The notes under the pieces: generated by a model | What the model saw: only the letters and a program-made list of their open reading frames with translations | Database searches by the model: none | What the model was told of the DNA's origin: nothing | Position numbers and translations under genes: made by a program | Sequence record: NC_073321.1 | Reading direction: 5' to 3' (one strand) | Source of the DNA: Escherichia phage ZCEC5 | Length of the DNA stretch: 43,372 nucleotides | Shown: positions 3,536-40,018 of the stretch, one piece after another | How positions within the stretch are numbered: position 1 is the stretch's first letter | How the letters are laid out: every line of letters begins with the position of its first letter

Positions 3536-4796
3536 TATCACGGCAACGGAACCGCAAGGCGCGTTTCTCGGTATGCACTGCAAGTTCCCTGCCTTCGTAG
3601 CGGGATTTGGCACTGGCAAATCCGAAGTCATGTGCAACTCTGCACTACTCGATAGCATGGAAGGTGGTAGCGATTCTATCATCGCCATGTATGAGCCAAC
3701 ATACGACCTTGTGCGTCTTATCCTTGCGCCGCGTATGGAAGAAAAACTCACCGACTGGGGTGTGAGGTACAAATACAACAAGTCCGACAACATAATCTAT
3801 ACATCATCCGGACAATTCGGTGATTTTGTTCTGCGTACACTAGATAATCCAGCACGAATCGTTGGTTACGAATCGTTTCGCGCAAAAATCGACGAGTTGG
3901 ACACCCTTAACATGGAACACGCTGAGCACGCGTGGAACAAAGTCATCGCCCGTAACCGCCAGTTACCGCGGACATATAAACCTATTACACCTAAACCGGC
4001 TAATACCGTTTCCGTGTTCACTACGCCGGAGGGATTCCGTTTCGTACATGACCGATGGGTGGTCAAAAAGAACCCTGGTTACGAGATGATTCAGGCATCC
4101 ACCCTGTCTAACCCGTTCCTGCCAGAAGATTATGTGCAGTCATTGCGTGACACCTATCCGGGTCAGTTGATCGACGCCTACATCAACGGCGAATTTGTCA
4201 ACCTAACGGCGGGAACCGTCTACTACGCTTACGACCGCAGGAAAAACAGCAGCCGCGAAACAATCAAGCCCGGCGAGACTCTGTATATCGGGCAGGACTT
4301 TAACGTAGGTCACATGGCGAGCACAGTTTACGTGCAACGGGGTAAAGTCTGGCATGCCGTTGCCGAGTTGGTTGATATGTTCGACACCCCGGATGTAGTG
4401 CGGGCCATAACTGAGCGATGGAAAAGTAAGGGCCACTATATCGTTATGTACCCGGACGCCAGCGGCAAAAACCGTAAAAGCAACAACGCCAGTACCTCTG
4501 ACATCGCCCAATTACAGCAGGCCGGGTTCGAAGTGCGTGCAAAATCGACAAACCCACCGGTTAAAGACCGCGTATCGGCGATGAATAAGGCGCTTGAATC
4601 TGGTATGGTCATGATTAACGAACAGGCTTGCCCGGTTACTGCTCGATGCCTGGAGCAACAGGCCTACGACAAGAACGGCGAACCGGATAAATCAGGTGGT
4701 GTGGACCACCAGAATGATGGAACCACATATCCTATCGCGTATGAAATGCCGATTCGCAAACCAGTAATCAACGTCCCGGTGACTTTCGCACTTTAA
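3525..4796 (+). CDS. Terminase large subunit
   Basis: 423 aa; Walker A-like GFGTGKS near N-terminus; GTG start with RBS AAGGTGG; gene order terS-terL-portal. Confidence 0.85.
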   Translation: MNVNITATEPQGAFLGMHCKFPAFVAGFGTGKSEVMCNSALLDSMEGGSDSIIAMYEPTYDLVRLILAPRMEEKLTDWGVRYKYNKSDNIIYTSSGQFGDFVLRTLDNPARIVGYESFRAKIDELDTLNMEHAEHAWNKVIARNRQLPRTYKPITPKPANTVSVFTTPEGFRFVHDRWVVKKNPGYEMIQASTLSNPFLPEDYVQSLRDTYPGQLIDAYINGEFVNLTAGTVYYAYDRRKNSSRETIKPGETLYIGQDFNVGHMASTVYVQRGKVWHAVAELVDMFDTPDVVRAITERWKSKGHYIVMYPDASGKNRKSNNASTSDIAQLQQAGFEVRAKSTNPPVKDRVSAMNKALESGMVMINEQACPVTARCLEQQAYDKNGEPDKSGGVDHQNDGTTYPIAYEMPIRKPVINVPVTFAL

Positions 4797-33111: not shown

Positions 33112-33300
33112 ATAAAATTTTGCAATAGGGATTATGTTCTCGAAATTAAGCATATTGGCCGGTTCGAACTCATCCTCTACAGGGTCGTATCGCATCATGG
33201 TACCGTTCAAGAACGTGAACGATTCCGAGTGTAGATACCCATCCCAGCGCCATACCATCAAAAAATCTTTATCAGTCGGCATTTCATTTACTTGAATCAT
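33097..33300 (-). CDS. Hypothetical protein (67 aa)
   Basis: ATG 33300 overlaps DUF2800 stop (ATGA) and is preceded by GAGGAGGA. Confidence 0.45.
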   Translation of the reverse strand: MIQVNEMPTDKDFLMVWRWDGYLHSESFTFLNGTMMRYDPVEDEFEPANMLNFENIIPIAKFYLTHE

Positions 33301-34538
33301 TCTAAATCCTCCTCTGTAACTTGATTCCACTCAGGACGTGTGTCATCCGCCGTTGCGACGCATGGCGCACCGGGCTTACGGGTAATGAAGTCTTTCAGTT
33401 CTTCTTCCGGTACAATTTTAACCGCTTCGGTCGGTGTCATAAGAACTACCTTTTGCAGCATAGTACCGTACTTCTCGAATACTGCGTCGGTATCTTTCCA
33501 CGCACGATTACCGGGGCGACCTTCAACCAGTTTGTATCCTGGCACTTTCTTACCTGAATGCAAAGCAGCAGCCATCGCTTTCTCAACCTTGTCGATGTGC
33601 TGGCGCAACAACGGCAGCTTCTCATACTCAGCGACGAGTTGCTCTGGCGTAAGTTCCAGCGCACAGTCGTCCTCAAGTTCTTCCGCCAGTACCGCGTTAA
33701 CGGTTTTTGTACGAGCTGCGCACTGTTCCGAGAAACGACACCACTGACAACCATCTACCGACGGCTTGAAGTCCGACGCTTTAAGGTTCTTCTTGCCGCG
33801 GTTATAGGCATCAAGTGCTAACAGTGCACGTTTCTGTGCGAACTTAGCGAACAGTTCCAGACCTTCAACCGAGATGTCCCACTCCGACGCGCCACCAGCG
33901 TACGGCTGAAAGATGACCAGACGAACGGTTGTTATGTTATAACGTCTCTTGAGTCGGCGATAAACACCGAGAGCGTAAAGCATAAGCTGCTTGTTTTCTT
34001 TCGCTTCGACACGATGTCGTCCTGTTTTCAGGTCGCCAATAATGAGCATGTACTCGTCGGTGTTAGCCAGTTCCTGAACGGCAACAAGGTCGGCGGTTCC
34101 GAAGGTTTCAACGCCTTCGTAACCTGGGTGCAATACCTCAGTAAGGTTAACGCGCATCTCGAGCTTGGCGTAAGTAGCTACATCGATAATCGGTTTGCAG
34201 TAGTCTGTGTACTTGCGCACCTGCTCAATCATATCCGCCGTAATCAGTACCGCGCCTTTCATCGGGCTGATTAGCGCCTTAATCTGACCTTTACCCTCAT
34301 CCAGCACGTAAGCGCCGACTTCACGCTCTAACGGCAACGCAGTGCCTTTTATATACTGGTTTAGATGGACCTCAGCTATAGTGTGACATGCGGTTCCTGT
34401 AACTGCGGATTTACCAGACGTGTTAGGAATATCTTTTTCACAGGCCAGTGATGCAGCGCATGACAGCCACTTTTTAGCCCCGGACGGCGACAGTAAAGCG
34501 TGTACGTCGTTATTGCCACCGCGTTCTTTTAGAATCAT
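33297..34538 (-). CDS. DUF2800-like PD-(D/E)xK nuclease with C-terminal Cys cluster (Cas4/RecB-like)
   Basis: N-terminal LLSPSGAKKWLSC, catalytic-type GDLKTG, C-terminal CQWCRFSEQC. Confidence 0.7.
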   Translation of the reverse strand: MILKERGGNNDVHALLSPSGAKKWLSCAASLACEKDIPNTSGKSAVTGTACHTIAEVHLNQYIKGTALPLEREVGAYVLDEGKGQIKALISPMKGAVLITADMIEQVRKYTDYCKPIIDVATYAKLEMRVNLTEVLHPGYEGVETFGTADLVAVQELANTDEYMLIIGDLKTGRHRVEAKENKQLMLYALGVYRRLKRRYNITTVRLVIFQPYAGGASEWDISVEGLELFAKFAQKRALLALDAYNRGKKNLKASDFKPSVDGCQWCRFSEQCAARTKTVNAVLAEELEDDCALELTPEQLVAEYEKLPLLRQHIDKVEKAMAAALHSGKKVPGYKLVEGRPGNRAWKDTDAVFEKYGTMLQKVVLMTPTEAVKIVPEEELKDFITRKPGAPCVATADDTRPEWNQVTEEDLE

Positions 34539-35032
34539 TTCTCGTCTCCGTTAACTGTAAAGCCGTATTTAATTTCGGCTTGCCTACGAGCCTTAGCTGC
34601 GTTCTCTAATTTATCGTAAGCCCCTAAATAAATCGGCGTACCGTCTACATAAATTCTTGCAACCCACTTACCGCAGCGTTTATGAAACCCAACACCTTTA
34701 ACCCCTGAAGTATTGTCAGCCCGTACGCTGGTGCCGTGTGCGATGCTACCTCGACGCATTTTTATAAGATTTTCTATCCTGTTATCAGTTCTATCTTTAT
34801 TTTCGTGACGAATTACTTCCCCCGGCGCTATCGGCCCGTTAAACATCTCCCAAACAACGTGGTGGATAAGTTTAGTAGCACCGTTAAAACGCAGTATTTT
34901 AAATTCACTCCCATCGTTATCCACCCTCGTACTGCCGGCTTCCTGTCCTATTTTTACAGATTTTGACGGGCTTATTTTCCAAAACAATTTACCTGTATCA
35001 CGGTCGTAGTCAAAAACTTCACGCCAATTCAT
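34535..35032 (-). CDS. HNH-AP2 homing endonuclease paralog (degenerate HNH motif)
   Basis: N-terminal FDYDRDTGKLFWK; HNH region reads IRHENKDRTDNRIENL; C-terminal AP2-like YLGAYDKLENAAKARR; ATG 35032 overlaps upstream stop. Confidence 0.6.
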   Translation of the reverse strand: MNWREVFDYDRDTGKLFWKISPSKSVKIGQEAGSTRVDNDGSEFKILRFNGATKLIHHVVWEMFNGPIAPGEVIRHENKDRTDNRIENLIKMRRGSIAHGTSVRADNTSGVKGVGFHKRCGKWVARIYVDGTPIYLGAYDKLENAAKARRQAEIKYGFTVNGDEK

Positions 35033-35301
35033 GCCAAAGTCTCCCACTGGTCAATTAAATGTCGTGTCTGGTGATGGCAATGCATGGCCCACCCGTACAT
35101 CGACTCGAAGACATAAAAGTCAGGTTTGGCGAAAGTCGTGCGCTTAATCTGCGACACGTGACGGCCTATATCTTTAGGCCGTGGTACTTTGCCTAAGTAC
35201 GCCATCTCTTCCATCTGGTGCGCACCGGACGGCGCACGCAACAGCCACAACGCCTCTGTGTTATCCCGCCTGTCAACGGCGCGGTAGAGTTGGTAAACCA
35301 T
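35029..35301 (-). CDS. Hypothetical protein (90 aa)
   Basis: RBS GAGGG; His-rich segment HCHHQTRH. Confidence 0.45.
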   Translation of the reverse strand: MVYQLYRAVDRRDNTEALWLLRAPSGAHQMEEMAYLGKVPRPKDIGRHVSQIKRTTFAKPDFYVFESMYGWAMHCHHQTRHLIDQWETLA

Positions 35302-36238: not shown

Positions 36239-38479
36239 CTACTCCAAATCCTCCTCTGTCACCACCAGCATTTCATTTGGTTCGTATATTGTCTTCGGTC
36301 TTAATCTGTCGCCCATCTTTTCCGGTATCCGGTATGTGCCTGGTATAACTTCACCGTTAACATCGCACCCAAGCATCAACTCCCCGTCTTTCAGCATCTT
36401 CTCAAGATGGTGGTTGGTGATGGCGTGGTCGCCCGAGTTCGCCACTATCTGCCGTTGGGTAAAACCTCGTCCGGTGTCGTCAGACTGTTGCAGGTCTTCC
36501 AGCGCGGCGAGTATTGATTCCTTACGCCCTTCATCCTTCCCACGTTTTACAGCATTCTTTACGTTTTCTTTACCTTCCTTTGTCAGCCCTTCTTCCCGCT
36601 CTTTCTCTTCGTCGGTCTTGAACGGCTCGAATCCCCACGGCATCAGCACAAGTGCCTTATGCGGCTCAGGAAGGTCCAGGTTTACGATTGTGCCGTACTC
36701 CTCTGTGCTACCCAGGAACTCAACCGCACGGTACTCTTTCGGCGGCGGGGCTTCACGGAACTGTACAGACTCGAGCACCATGCCAACCGTTTTCTGCTGA
36801 GGCCCGTGCTTAAATTTAGAGTGGTATACGTTTATTTGACGGTCGGTTGCACGTTCAATCGTCAGTTCCACGTCGACACCCGCATACAAGGCCCCGCTAC
36901 CACGGGCTTTCTTGCCACCCTTCGGCGTATGGTGGACAACACCTACTGCGGCTTTAGTTGCATCACGTACTTCTTTCAGGATGGCGATAACTTTACCCAT
37001 ACCGATTGCCGTTGATGAACTGTTCTCGTCGAACTTATCAATCGTCAGGGCCAGCGTCTGGTTAAGGGTGTCAAACGCGACCATGCCAATAGGTTCATCC
37101 CCTGCGGTTTCGCGCATTAGCTTAATCAGGCTTTTCAGTTTGCCGACGTCGCCCATATCGATTACATGTACATAATCTTTACCTTCCTCACCGTATTTAG
37201 CCGCGAGTGCATCGATACGTGTGCGTGTGGCCGCACCACCTTCACCGTCGATATAGAAGTGATGGCAACGCTGGGTGTCAGCCCCCGCAAACCGGTATCC
37301 TGCGGCGCTCAGGTACATCATCCCCAGCGTATAGAATGATTTGTACGTACCAGATTCACCGACAATATCCCAGATGCAGTCTGACGGCATGTAACCTTCA
37401 ACGACGAAATCAGCCTTTACCGGTTCTGGTAACTCGTCCTCCTCTGAGTCCTCGTCGTCTTCCAGGTCGTCGAGGCTGCATGAAACGGATTCACGTGCAC
37501 CCCAGCCGATTGCCTCAGCGACTTCACTGAACGGTAGCCCGGTCGCATCACACGCATACTTCCACACCTCCTTCGGCGACATGCCTTCGGTCGCCGTAAT
37601 GTCGGTGTCGTGAATCATGGTTACGTTAGGGGCTTCGTACCCCTCGCGTGGGAAGCACAGCAGGAAGTCGTCCGGGCGCGGGGTAGGGTCGCTGTAGTTT
37701 TCTGCGTGTTCTGGTGTAGCTGGCATCTTAAGGCCACGCGGCGTCATGATACCGCCGTACTCGAAAGCCAGTGCCTCGAACGCATCAGTAAACGCGGTGC
37801 GCAGTTCTTCTGGTATCTGGTAATCAGATGCGCTGCTCACCTCGTAATCCGGGATGTCTTCTAGCAGTTCCTCCGGGTCAATCAGGTCGTTGCGTCGTGA
37901 CCAGATAACCTGAGAGCCAACAGGCGGCAGATACATCGGCTGCGACAGAGTGAACCCGCTGCGGTCCGCACCCATGCCTTTGAAGAAGTGCTCAAGCAAG
38001 CCATGACGAACACGGATGATGTCACCGCCTTCAACCGGACGGCCCAGCGGCATAACGACGCGAAAGCGTGGGGACTCATCGGTATGTGACGCCGTGGTGT
38101 AAAGGCACATAGCCCTGCGGCTGCGCTTAACCAGGCGCACCGCTTCCTGATACTCTTCCGGCGTCGCACTGTCGAAGTCCAGATACGCCAGCGACGATTT
38201 GCTTACAGACGCATCGCAGCGGTAGAAGAAGCCTTTACGTGCTTGCTTAAAGTCTCCCGTTTCTGGGTCTTTTACGGTGCTGCGCGTAGCGTCACACGCG
38301 GCAGTGATATAGCCAGGCGCGGTCTTCGGGTTAATTCCGTCACGAACAACATCGAGCGGCTGGATTAAATCTTTCAGGTCGTCCAGTGTTGCCGTGTGTG
38401 TGGTTCTGACGTTTATATCCTTTTTCTCTGCCCGCGCGTTGCGACGGGACCACGAGTAGGATAAAATTACATCGGACAT
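36239..38479 (-). CDS. DNA primase / helicase (N-terminal primase-like domain fused to RecA-like ATPase)
   Basis: Walker A GESGTYKS and Walker B MVAFDTL in C-terminal half; 746 aa; replication-module context. Confidence 0.65.
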   Translation of the reverse strand: MSDVILSYSWSRRNARAEKKDINVRTTHTATLDDLKDLIQPLDVVRDGINPKTAPGYITAACDATRSTVKDPETGDFKQARKGFFYRCDASVSKSSLAYLDFDSATPEEYQEAVRLVKRSRRAMCLYTTASHTDESPRFRVVMPLGRPVEGGDIIRVRHGLLEHFFKGMGADRSGFTLSQPMYLPPVGSQVIWSRRNDLIDPEELLEDIPDYEVSSASDYQIPEELRTAFTDAFEALAFEYGGIMTPRGLKMPATPEHAENYSDPTPRPDDFLLCFPREGYEAPNVTMIHDTDITATEGMSPKEVWKYACDATGLPFSEVAEAIGWGARESVSCSLDDLEDDEDSEEDELPEPVKADFVVEGYMPSDCIWDIVGESGTYKSFYTLGMMYLSAAGYRFAGADTQRCHHFYIDGEGGAATRTRIDALAAKYGEEGKDYVHVIDMGDVGKLKSLIKLMRETAGDEPIGMVAFDTLNQTLALTIDKFDENSSSTAIGMGKVIAILKEVRDATKAAVGVVHHTPKGGKKARGSGALYAGVDVELTIERATDRQINVYHSKFKHGPQQKTVGMVLESVQFREAPPPKEYRAVEFLGSTEEYGTIVNLDLPEPHKALVLMPWGFEPFKTDEEKEREEGLTKEGKENVKNAVKRGKDEGRKESILAALEDLQQSDDTGRGFTQRQIVANSGDHAITNHHLEKMLKDGELMLGCDVNGEVIPGTYRIPEKMGDRLRPKTIYEPNEMLVVTEEDLE

Positions 38480-38537
38480 GTTGTATTTCCTTCAGCAAGT
38501 AATTTAGCCTCGGCGTTCACCGCGTCGGGGCTTTCTT

Positions 38538-38771
38538 TTATTCCAGGTCTTCTAAAGTAGCGGTCATTCCGCGAACTTCAGCAACAGCACTATATTTCCC
38601 GCCAACATTTTTCACGACACCAGATTTAACCAGCACTTTCAACGACCCTTCAATAATGGCTGAACTATAGTACTTAAAATAACTACGGCGCAAGTCGATA
38701 ACGCTGCACGACCCTTTTTTACGTGTTAACGAAACTACCGCCGTAAATACGCGTGACTGGAACTCGGTCAT
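38538..38771 (-). CDS. Hypothetical protein (77 aa) with C-terminal TLEDLE tail
   Basis: ATGA-coupled; C-terminus resembles those of the primase and DUF2800 proteins. Confidence 0.45.
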   Translation of the reverse strand: MTEFQSRVFTAVVSLTRKKGSCSVIDLRRSYFKYYSSAIIEGSLKVLVKSGVVKNVGGKYSAVAEVRGMTATLEDLE

Positions 38772-38938
38772 TTAACGTTCTCCTTAATCCACGCTTCCAC
38801 TTTCTCCGGGTCAAACGTACCAGGCTGCCGGCGGCCCATAATGCGGATACAACAATCTGGGAACTTCCCGCTCTTTAACCAGTTATTCAGTGTGCGACGA
38901 GTAACCCCGATACGCTCGGCTACCTCATTCTGCGTCAT
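38768..38938 (-). CDS. Small HTH DNA-binding protein (AlpA/excisionase-like)
   Basis: MTQNEVAERIGVTRRTLNNWLKSGKFP; ATG 38938 with RBS AAGGAG (ORF-track frame 38768..39016). Confidence 0.5.
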   Translation of the reverse strand: MTQNEVAERIGVTRRTLNNWLKSGKFPDCCIRIMGRRQPGTFDPEKVEAWIKENVK

Positions 38939-39077
38939 CTTTAATCTCCTTAATTGTTTCCCATGCGAACGCTGTAGCTGTGCCGTATTTATTAGGGCAG
39001 TATCTGCTCTCGCCATGTCCGTTAAACCACGCTTCTATCAGCAACTCTTTCAACTGTTCTTCTGTCAAAGTAACCAT
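38925..39077 (-). CDS. Hypothetical small protein (50 aa), first gene of leftward early operon
   Basis: ATG 39077 with RBS GAGGG; the ORF-track TTG start at 39110 overlaps the -10 hexamer. Confidence 0.4.
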   Translation of the reverse strand: MVTLTEEQLKELLIEAWFNGHGESRYCPNKYGTATAFAWETIKEIKDDAE

Positions 39078-39109
39078 TCTCAAACCCTCATTATCAGTTA
39101 ACGGAGACA

Positions 39110-39138
39110 AGTATACATTGCGAATAATGGGAAATCAA
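39110..39138 (-). promoter_or_regulatory. Leftward early promoter TTGATT-17-TATACT
   Basis: -10 TATACT at 39115-39110, -35 TTGATT at 39138-39133. Confidence 0.45.
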
Positions 39139-39153
39139 ACATAATCGCACCTA

Positions 39154-39182
39154 TTGACATTATGAAAATCTTCGTTTAAGGT
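39154..39182 (+). promoter_or_regulatory. Rightward candidate promoter TTGACA-17-TAAGGT
   Basis: Consensus -35; -10 similar to the 8461 hexamer; divergent from the leftward promoter. Confidence 0.3.
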
Positions 39183-39188
39183 GCTTCT

Positions 39189-39443
39189 ATATCTTAGTTA
39201 CTTTGATTCCTGTTCACCTTGTAAGAATGTTTAACCCGTGCGTCAAGCAAAGGGTTAAACACAGGCTTACTGAACATAAGAATTATAGTAACTTTCCTTC
39301 CTTAGTATCTCCAGTTGCCATGGGCAAGCTCTATTCTCATCGGCAGCATATCTCTTAAGTATCTGATTTTCTTAATGTGCCGTAGATTCGCAACCGTAAA
39401 AATGTAACGATTATTGGGCAGGCTTAAGGCCTGCCCTTTAGTT
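39189..39443 (+). ncRNA. Candidate ~250-nt noncoding RNA in the divergent control region
   Basis: No ORF; contains 9-bp perfect inverted repeat GTTTAACCC-N14-GGGTTAAAC (39229-39260); ends at an intrinsic terminator. Confidence 0.2.
39416..39443 (+). terminator. Intrinsic terminator in noncoding region
   Basis: GGGCAGGC-TTAAG-GCCTGCCC followed by TTTAGTT. Confidence 0.5.
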
Positions 39444-39508
39444 ACCAAGTAATAAGAATAAAGGCACAACCTTCCCTAAAGAATCACAACGGCAACGTAA
39501 CTAATCCC

Positions 39509-39537
39509 TTGCACACCCCAACATAATAGGATACTAT
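39509..39537 (+). promoter_or_regulatory. Class B promoter TTGCAC-17-TACTAT with palindrome AATAGGATACTATT
   Basis: CTTGCACACCCCAACATAATAGGATACTATTCA, near-identical to the 8339 and 16923 promoters. Confidence 0.55.
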
Positions 39538-39571
39538 TCACTTATCGAAACGAGACAGAGGAGTGAGAGTT

Positions 39572-40018
39572 ATGTTTAAGAAGGGTCAGTTGGTGAAAAC
39601 GAAACGCAGCGGACAATACGTATTAGTGTTGCGGGATGAGAACGAGCACGACAAGGATAATATAGTCGCCATATGGAGTCTGGTAAGAAAGAAAAATGGG
39701 TATACCTCACGTGATAATCTGAAACTCATCGGCAACAATTTTAAATTCAAAGGGGGCGGAGTGATGGAAGAATTAATTTGTATTGAATCCAGCCAGGATG
39801 TGCAGGATTGGTTTGTGAAAGGTAACAAATATTCGTCCGGAGTATATTACAACGGCCGTCGATATGTTTTAGACGAAGACGGTGATGAATGGGATTTAAA
39901 TGACGATGTAAGAGAAACTTTAACCGTTAGCAGGGTCAATGCTGTTTCTGCCTCATTCACAACGGCATCGAAACATGATGCTCGCGCCGCCGACTCTGAG
40001 GGAGGTTGCCGTGAATAA
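39572..40018 (+). CDS. Hypothetical protein (148 aa)
   Basis: RBS GAGGAG; first gene after class B promoter. Confidence 0.55.
   Translation: MFKKGQLVKTKRSGQYVLVLRDENEHDKDNIVAIWSLVRKKNGYTSRDNLKLIGNNFKFKGGGVMEELICIESSQDVQDWFVKGNKYSSGVYYNGRRYVLDEDGDEWDLNDDVRETLTVSRVNAVSASFTTASKHDARAADSEGGCRE

Follow-up and report, generated by a model that had tools for sequence, protein, structure and literature searches.

In the window, by which we mean the whole 43,372-nt stretch of Escherichia phage ZCEC5 DNA analyzed here (NC_073321.1), we found a precise 139-nt insertion, carrying a 50-aa ORF, at the start codon of a small helix-turn-helix (HTH) gene. We think it probable that the insertion is an accessory gene cassette placed in a core early/replication operon and that the 50-aa protein binds a host factor. 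The ORF is a real gene, and it belongs with the accessory early genes of virulent phages. The first-pass annotation had read the two small genes as an anti-CRISPR (acr-aca) type of layout, that is, a small anti-defense gene followed by an HTH autoregulator. The likeness of the locus to an anti-CRISPR locus is positional only. As it stands, the locus is an ordinary hypothetical early gene ahead of a core regulator.

The ~1.3-kb region around the locus matched 370 phage records, almost all of which were Kagunavirus or Jerseyvirus (Guernseyvirinae), with E. coli and Salmonella as their hosts. Escherichia phage EF2-1 matched best (91.9% identity). The window is a Kagunavirus-like virulent siphophage; phages of the Kagunavirus/Jerseyvirus type are virulent siphoviruses with genomes of ~41-45 kb (PMC11990801). 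The elements of the locus follow one another on the minus strand: a promoter, the 50-aa ORF (38925-39077; ATG at 39077, TGA at 38925), a 56-aa HTH_17 protein of the excisionase/MerR-like type (38768-38938; ATG at 38938, stop at 38768), a 77-aa winged-helix protein (38538-38771), a hairpin and a 746-aa helicase-primase with an AAA_25 domain (36239-38479), which is annotated as the replicative helicase-primase in relatives. The coordinates that had been given for the 50-aa ORF and the 56-aa HTH protein were correct, and both genes are on the minus strand. They overlap by 14 nt, and the 77-aa ORF overlaps the HTH stop codon as ATGA. What is conserved is a unit made up of a pair of small basic DNA-binding proteins with the helicase-primase behind them. 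The hairpin (38506-38532, strand unassigned) is GC-rich, has an 11-bp stem and comes after the 77-aa gene and ahead of the helicase-primase gene. It is terminator-like only on the plus strand and has no U-tail on the minus (operon) strand. Positions 38400-39700 gave no match in Rfam.

To compare the locus with its relatives, we used 44 IMG/VR loci that contain the HTH gene, plus EF2-1 and Bas73, and aligned 45 loci. Ahead of the 50-aa ORF, a consensus scan located a leftward promoter, P_left (39110-39138, minus strand), with a -35 hexamer TTGATT (39138-39133), a 17-nt spacer and a -10 hexamer TATACT (39115-39110). The two hexamers scored 9 of 12 consensus positions. The pattern TTG[AC]TT-17-TATACT occurred in 45 of the 45 related loci, and in the alignment the hexamers were the most conserved, invariant columns of otherwise diverging intergenic DNA. 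The leftward promoter named in the first-pass annotation was thus borne out by the scan match, the presence of the pattern in every locus and the invariance of both hexamers, and P_left is a well-supported prediction of a sigma-70-type leftward early promoter. Back-to-back with it, and divergent, a regular expression matched a putative promoter, P_right (TTGACA-17-TAAGGT; 39154-39182, plus strand), whose pattern TTGAC[AT]-17-TAAGNT was present in 42 of 45 relatives. In an RNAalifold analysis of the intergenic DNA for a structured element, the variable inner hairpin did not align across loci.

Two alternative gene starts were dismissed. Lengthening the 50-aa ORF to 61 aa would require the TTG at 39110, which sits within the -10 hexamer, and the position of an 82-aa in-frame extension of the HTH gene is filled by promoter and leader in the insert-free relatives.

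The leader showed how the insertion is built. The Shine-Dalgarno site GAGGG (39085-39089, minus strand), read from the sequence, belongs to the 50-aa ORF in the window; where the insert is lacking, the HTH gene uses it instead, and AATGAGGGTTTGAGAATG likewise stands ahead of the HTH ATG in seven relatives. In the insert-free relatives, AATGAGGGTTTGAGA-ATG-AC(A/G)CAGAATGA reads directly into the HTH gene. In 41 of the 45 aligned loci, no gene preceded the HTH gene; as first cistron, it had its ATG at the position of the 50-aa ATG, behind the same Shine-Dalgarno site. Because the Shine-Dalgarno site and the ATG are shared with the insert-free relatives, the window carries a precise 139-nt insertion (38939-39077, minus strand), which runs from the shared ATG to the base before the present HTH ATG. 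The insertion splits the ancestral HTH gene exactly between its ATG and codon 2. At its 3′ end, the insert provides the HTH gene with a substitute ATG and a substitute AAGGAG (38946-38951, minus strand; read from the sequence), the latter embedded in the final part of the 50-aa ORF. The 50-aa ORF in turn ends within the HTH gene, whose beginning, read in another frame, gives it its last four codons and its stop. The 14-nt overlap and the embedded Shine-Dalgarno site suggest that the two genes are translationally coupled.

Among the 45 loci, the 50-aa ORF was present only in the window, EF2-1 (L001), L003 and L012. Five more ENA/Logan contigs, with alleles of 80-88% identity, had the identical context of 50-aa ORF, 56-aa HTH gene, 77-aa gene and AAA_25 gene. 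In GenBank phages, a close copy of the 50-aa gene was found in one record (EF2-1), compared with 441 records for the HTH gene. By parsimony, the cassette was probably gained rather than lost. The pS among alleles was 0.19 for the 50-aa gene and 0.23-0.24 for the neighboring core genes; as its alleles are as synonymously diverged as those of its core neighbors, the insertion is not recent. The 50-aa gene is a horizontally mobile accessory gene, of a kind that could be anti-host.

The 50-aa ORF matched the PHROG family phrog_20928 with an E-value of 6.4e-19, residues 1-50 aligning with profile positions 1-50 of 51. A tblastn search added 60 phage records with homologues that were 38-56% identical and came from unrelated phage families; homologues from other families kept the core AW[FW]xGHxxSxYxPN. 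When 1.84 billion representative proteins were searched exhaustively with a profile, 13 clusters were returned for the protein, 11 of them distant. All of the clusters mapped to phrog_20928, and the distant ones were unannotated. They had in common the family core (L/I)TE.QL..L...AW(F/W).GH..S.Y.PN..G.A, some with N- or C-terminal extensions. A word-indexed homologue search with the 50-aa protein returned only the close Kagunavirus alleles. Across nine alleles, the pN/pS of the 50-aa gene was 0.37, compared with 0.04 for the HTH gene and 0.09 for the 77-aa gene; these values are pairwise sums, and the pairs are not phylogenetically independent. The 50-aa gene is therefore under purifying selection, ~4-9 times more relaxed than that on its two core neighbors. 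To be selected and yet to evolve faster is as expected of accessory genes.

The AlphaFold2 model of the 50-aa protein was a two-helix hairpin (pLDDT 82.5) with helices at residues 6-21 and 28-49. The protein is acidic (pI 4.65, net charge ~-5), as are most members of the family. It had no match in Pfam, NCBIfam or PADLOC, and a 14-sequence profile found nothing below an E-value of 1 in the PDB sequences. Foldseek comparison of the model with PDB and BFVD gave only non-specific helical-hairpin matches, with E-values of 0.35 or worse. A helical hairpin is too simple for a fold match to be diagnostic for this protein. The ORF is unannotated in EF2-1, and in the literature on phrog_20928 and on early transcription in Guernseyvirinae we found nothing on the gene. 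The family phrog_20928 is already known and the HTH gene is routinely annotated. What is new here is modest, namely the recognition of the ORF in this lineage, the precise structure of the cassette and its spread across phage families.

These features also bear on whether the ORF might be a regulatory upstream ORF or leader peptide, with its translation, not its product, tuning the HTH gene. The 14-nt overlap and the embedded Shine-Dalgarno site, which would imply translational coupling, agree with such a role. However, the protein sequence is conserved across unrelated phages and in other gene contexts, the pN/pS is 0.37, the predicted fold is confident, and relatives express the HTH gene directly without the ORF. 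We consider a leader peptide very improbable.

The closest homologue outside Kagunavirus was gp1.5 of phage K1E (CAJ29399.1; 51 aa), with ~55% identity over 49/50 residues. Flanked by gp1 and gp2, it is part of the class-I early region, and the Ocr-like gp3 comes ~1 kb downstream. Like the 50-aa ORF, gp1.5 has the AWFxGHxxSxYxPN core and an embedded AAGGAG with the next ATG 14 nt before its stop. K1E differs in being an SP6-like podovirus and in having no HTH_17 gene adjacent to gp1.5. K1E gp2 starts with MYQHEV and the HTH protein of the window with MTQNEV, which hints that the cassette may have entered by recombination at a short similar stretch. The C-terminus of K1E gp2.5 looked HTH-like by eye and had no Pfam match.

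The T7-like Przondovirus and Kayfunavirus, which infect Klebsiella and E. coli, have the homologue directly after the DNA polymerase gene; it is followed by gp5.5-like (confirmed by PF11247) and gp5.7-like genes and then by the exonuclease gene. This polymerase-adjacent homologue was found in 30 Klebsiella phage records, plus RDN8.1. In ST1UNAM and Bas95, a longer protein of 83-84 aa has the homologue as its C-terminal portion, and its gene lies in an array of small unknown genes. By Pfam, no HTH partner adjoined the homologues in K1E, ST1UNAM, Bas95, Przondovirus or Kayfunavirus, and thus the small gene is not HTH-linked elsewhere; its association is with the small-gene regions in which virulent phages house their host-interference functions.

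A different partner was considered for the 50-aa protein, in that it could be an accessory of phage DNA replication that binds the phage polymerase, the helicase-primase or a host replication protein. Its gene heads the replication operon in the window and comes directly after the polymerase gene in the many T7-like phages just mentioned. In K1E, ST1UNAM and Bas95, however, it lies among small early genes and away from replication genes, and the post-polymerase slot of T7-like phages also holds the host-interference genes gp5.5 and gp5.7. Moreover, ~90% of the Guernseyvirinae relatives do without the 50-aa gene although their replication proteins are near-identical. A replication accessory therefore seems unlikely to us, and a host factor is the partner that we favor.

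The takeover genes of T7-like phages (gp5.5, gp5.7, gp5.9 and Ocr) are likewise small, acidic, non-essential-looking and expressed early or in the middle period, and the 50-aa homologues of T7-like phages occupy the slot beside gp5.5 and gp5.7. The 50-aa protein differs from all four in having no sequence or fold similarity to them. A bolder proposal, which we hold only tentatively and regard as rather doubtful, is that the alpha-hairpins of phrog_20928 make up an undescribed host-interference or counter-defense family. As a cassette that is self-sufficient in translation, it would pass between virulent phages of E. coli and Klebsiella that are unrelated to one another, and here this cassette would have come to occupy the first translated position of the early transcript.

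The HTH protein matched the Pfam family HTH_17 (PF12728) with an E-value of 2.1e-7 (31.6 bits, cutoff 27), residues 1-54 aligning with profile positions 2-50 of 51. It also matched phrog_66, "excisionase and transcriptional regulator". It was found by tblastn in 441 phage records, in 439 of them at full length and nearly always at 79% identity or more, and it is a core gene of Guernseyvirinae. Its pN/pS of 0.04 indicates strong purifying selection. In the relatives compared, it stood at the head of the replication operon, and in every case the 77-aa winged-helix gene and then the helicase-primase gene came behind it. The description of this protein as AlpA-like held only loosely: it is a small HTH protein of the HTH_17 type, but Phage_AlpA (PF05930) was absent from its 25 best Pfam matches (down to E 0.17). 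The NCBIfam "excise" domain was sub-threshold (23.4 bits, cutoff 28.8). PADLOC gave a match to mad1 (E 7.4e-10), and an identity with the MADS protein MAD1 was rejected. The match is generic HTH_17 similarity, because the NCBIfam equivalog antiphage_MADS1 reached 15.5 bits against a cutoff of 80.

In an RNA-seq time course of the Kagunavirus vB_Eco_K1B4, four genes were early and the only annotated one among them was an HTH-domain gene, while the AAA-domain gene was classed as middle (PMC12645636). Judging from gene order, this early HTH gene is probably the ortholog of the HTH gene in the window, and the time course fits early expression from P_left.

The 77-aa protein matched phrog_5169 with an E-value of 1e-39 and had no match in Pfam, NCBIfam or PADLOC. 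Its gene is also core. Its model (pLDDT 87.4) had an H-H-H-beta-hairpin topology and resembled the LexA DNA-binding domain, the MotA N-terminal domain, IdeR and PhiH1 repressor-like proteins, with TM-scores of 0.6-0.7 and probabilities of ~1.0, although the E-values were weak (best 8.5e-3). A winged-helix DNA-binding fold is thus predicted for it.

We then return to the anti-CRISPR reading. Acas are HTH repressors that are co-encoded downstream of acr genes and bind inverted repeats in the operon promoter, and the same aca recurs beside varying acr genes, which is the basis of its use in guilt-by-association searches (PMC9765179; PMC13551039). If the locus were a genuine acr-aca-type locus, the 50-aa protein would inhibit CRISPR-Cas or another defense and the HTH protein would then repress P_left. 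The gene order and the position directly behind a strong early promoter agree with this, as in acrIF-aca1 of Pseudomonas phage JBD30 and acrIF8-aca2 of Pectobacterium phage ZF40, where a small gene is likewise co-transcribed upstream of a small HTH gene. So do the acidity of the small protein, its faster evolution relative to its neighbors, the patchy distribution and horizontal mobility of its gene, and the fact that K1E gp1.5 shares its early region with an Ocr-like gene. The layout seen in the first-pass annotation (early promoter, small gene and small HTH gene in one transcription unit) therefore stands as a gene order, whereas the analogy drawn from it does not.

Beyond gene order, the HTH gene differs from an aca on each point that we compared. 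It is a core gene and stands alone, free of cargo, in 41 of 45 relatives; only one type of cassette was ever found upstream of it, so that it does not recur beside differing cargo; the small gene has no HTH partner elsewhere; and the operon runs on into genes for replication. Known Acas match HTH_24, HTH_3, HTH_29, KORA, DUF1870 or YdaS (PMC9765179), whereas the best Pfam match of the HTH protein was HTH_17, and HTH_3 and YdaS gave only partial matches to its residues 1-31. Against solved structures, Acas included, the HTH protein matched only generic HTH segments at E <= 1, with no Aca chain among them, and no solved Aca or Acr chain matched either protein.

Nor was a conserved inverted repeat found over the promoter. 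A palindrome search together with the 45-locus alignment revealed no conserved operator palindrome in P_left. Considering palindromic sites, the only one near it was the imperfect 12-mer TCCGTTAACTGA (39094-39105), just downstream of the -10 hexamer, which was lost in Jerseyvirus and in a third clade. The HTH protein may still autoregulate P_left.

The 50-aa and 77-aa products, which the first-pass annotation had singled out for comparison with anti-defense collections, matched none of the defense models of PADLOC and nothing in Pfam or NCBIfam. For the 50-aa protein, no Acr or anti-defense homology was found among PDB sequences, or among PDB and BFVD folds at E < 0.1, either. In addition, the Kagunavirus isolates of the BASEL collection were reported to be highly sensitive to restriction-modification (PMC11990801), although these isolates lacked the cassette where this was checked (Bas73). 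Taken as a whole, a genuine acr-aca locus is quite unlikely, and so is a dedicated Aca role of the HTH protein, while an anti-defense role of the 50-aa protein is possible and unsupported. A general early regulator is better supported for the HTH protein than an acr-aca repressor, and it would probably act in regulation. The locus also shows that acr-aca loci are over-predicted when a small ORF with an HTH gene is the sole criterion.

With an accessory cassette as the preferred reading, the locus may be explained as follows. It would represent the 5′ end of the Kagunavirus core early/replication operon, made up of P_left, the HTH_17 gene, the winged-helix gene and the helicase-primase gene, and one lineage would have gained the 139-nt cassette exactly at the HTH start codon. 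The 50-aa ORF of the cassette would have taken over the ancestral Shine-Dalgarno site and ATG, the embedded AAGGAG and ATG would keep the HTH gene translated, and the overlap of 14 nt would allow translational coupling. The 50-aa protein would then be the first and most abundant product of an early promoter used by host RNA polymerase. The HTH protein would most likely be an early transcriptional regulator or a DNA-binding factor of the replication module rather than a dedicated anti-CRISPR-associated repressor. The winged-helix protein would likewise be a core protein that regulates the early and replication program or binds DNA in it. The acidic alpha-hairpin of 50 aa is most likely dispensable and would modulate a host protein, in host takeover or in counter-defense. 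Should it prove to have a host or defense target, the takeover and anti-defense repertoire would gain a very small family (~5.8 kDa) that occurs across phage families. Natural near-isogenic phages, with and without the cassette, would make this easy to test.

In P4-like satellites and Gram-negative PICIs, an AlpA-type excisionase/MerR-like HTH gene also heads an operon that leads into a primase-helicase gene. Those elements are integrative and carry integrases, whereas the phage of the window is virulent and AlpA was not among the best matches of its HTH protein. The cassette also resembles phage morons in being a dispensable gene that lies between conserved elements of a core operon and is patchy among close relatives. 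Classic morons carry their own promoter and terminator, and the cassette has neither; it takes the resident promoter, Shine-Dalgarno site and ATG and donates a replacement Shine-Dalgarno site and ATG. For phage engineering, this is a clean natural example of a gene added to a compact operon with the downstream gene undisturbed, and Kagunaviruses already serve as synthetic-biology chassis (PMC11990801).

The leftward early promoter P_left (39110-39138, minus strand) is predicted to stand back-to-back with a rightward promoter, P_right (TTGACA-17-TAAGGT; 39154-39182, plus strand), with a gap of 15 bp from one -35 hexamer to the other. The pattern TTGAC[AT]-17-TAAGNT was kept at P_right in 42 of the 45 relatives, while the flanking DNA has diverged.

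Downstream of P_right, a conserved, non-coding element of about 270 nt (39183-39450, plus strand) lies between the divergent operons. It folded at -79.6 kcal/mol and was far more stable than shuffled sequences (z = -5.2). Within it, on the plus strand, the outer inverted repeat AAAGTTAC...GTAACTTT (39196-39209 and 39280-39293) is conserved and encloses an inner hairpin with a perfect 10-bp stem in the window (39228-39261). Among the relatives the sequence of this inner hairpin varies and its hairpin form is kept. The 3′ end of the element is a strong terminator-like hairpin, GGGCAGGCTTAAGGCCTGCCC, followed by TTTAG (39416-39436). RNAalifold gave no information on the element because the inner hairpins of the relatives fail to align, and an Rfam search over 38400-39700 returned no match for it. 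Possible identities for the element are an origin element, a small RNA and a long structured leader.

In Jerseyvirus relatives, a perfect palindrome, GTAACTTGAAGTTAC, lies directly downstream of the -10 hexamer of P_right. In the window, the hexamer AGTAAC/GTTACT, which was noticed post hoc, occurs four times in about 400 nt (38900-39292); the entire 43-kb window holds 33 copies against 20.8 expected from shuffles. Both the hexamer copies and the Jerseyvirus palindrome are candidate binding sites, picked out after the fact, for the HTH protein or the winged-helix protein.

Within the leftward operon, an 11-bp GC-rich hairpin (38506-38532) separates the 77-aa winged-helix gene from the helicase-primase gene. 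It is followed by a T-run, and is hence terminator-like, on the plus strand only and not on the operon strand. A Kagunavirus RNA-seq study (PMC12645636) placed an HTH-domain gene, the presumed orthologue of the one here, among the early genes and the AAA-domain gene among the middle ones. Therefore, some attenuation or processing may occur at this hairpin.

The 50-aa ORF and the HTH gene (38925-39077 and 38768-38938) resemble gp1.5 and gp2 of the SP6-like podovirus K1E (1226-1381 and 1368-1592 of its locus) in having a 14-nt overlap with an embedded AAGGAG. The N-terminus reads MYQHEV in K1E gp2 versus MTQNEV in the HTH protein of the window. This likeness may be a microhomology footprint of cassette transfer. 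E. coli K1-specific phages are present in both the group of K1E and that of the window.

At codon 39 of the 50-aa ORF (38961-38963), the window allele encodes Trp (AFAW); Arg (AFAR, ALAR or SFAR) was found at this position in all 13 other close alleles and in EF2-1, the closest relative, and loci L003 and L012. In one clade (loci L017, L018, L022-L026, L028, L030, L031, L033, L034, L037 and L044), ATGCAACATTAC stands in frame immediately 5′ of the HTH ATG, after an AGGAG site. Translation of the HTH protein in this clade probably starts four codons upstream (MQHY-MTQNEV...).

Farther along, the leftward replication gene cluster contains a 170-aa protein of the homing-endonuclease type with HNH_3 and AP2 domains (34535-35047, minus strand), adjoined by a DUF2800/PD-(D/E)XK nuclease gene (33297-34538).

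The 50-aa ORF is unannotated in the GenBank record of EF2-1 (PQ571290.1; locus 3539-4176). Across records, the 77-aa winged-helix gene goes by differing names: 'putative uvsX-like protein' in some, 'replication protein' or 'hypothetical' in others; the UvsX label was supported neither by Pfam nor by the predicted fold. In L028 (IMGVR_UViG_3300045988_013548), the first ~60 nt comprise an apparent Nextera transposase adapter (…CTCGTGGGCTCGGAGATGTGTATAAGAGACAG) joined to phage sequence at the contig end, which is an assembly artefact of the public record.
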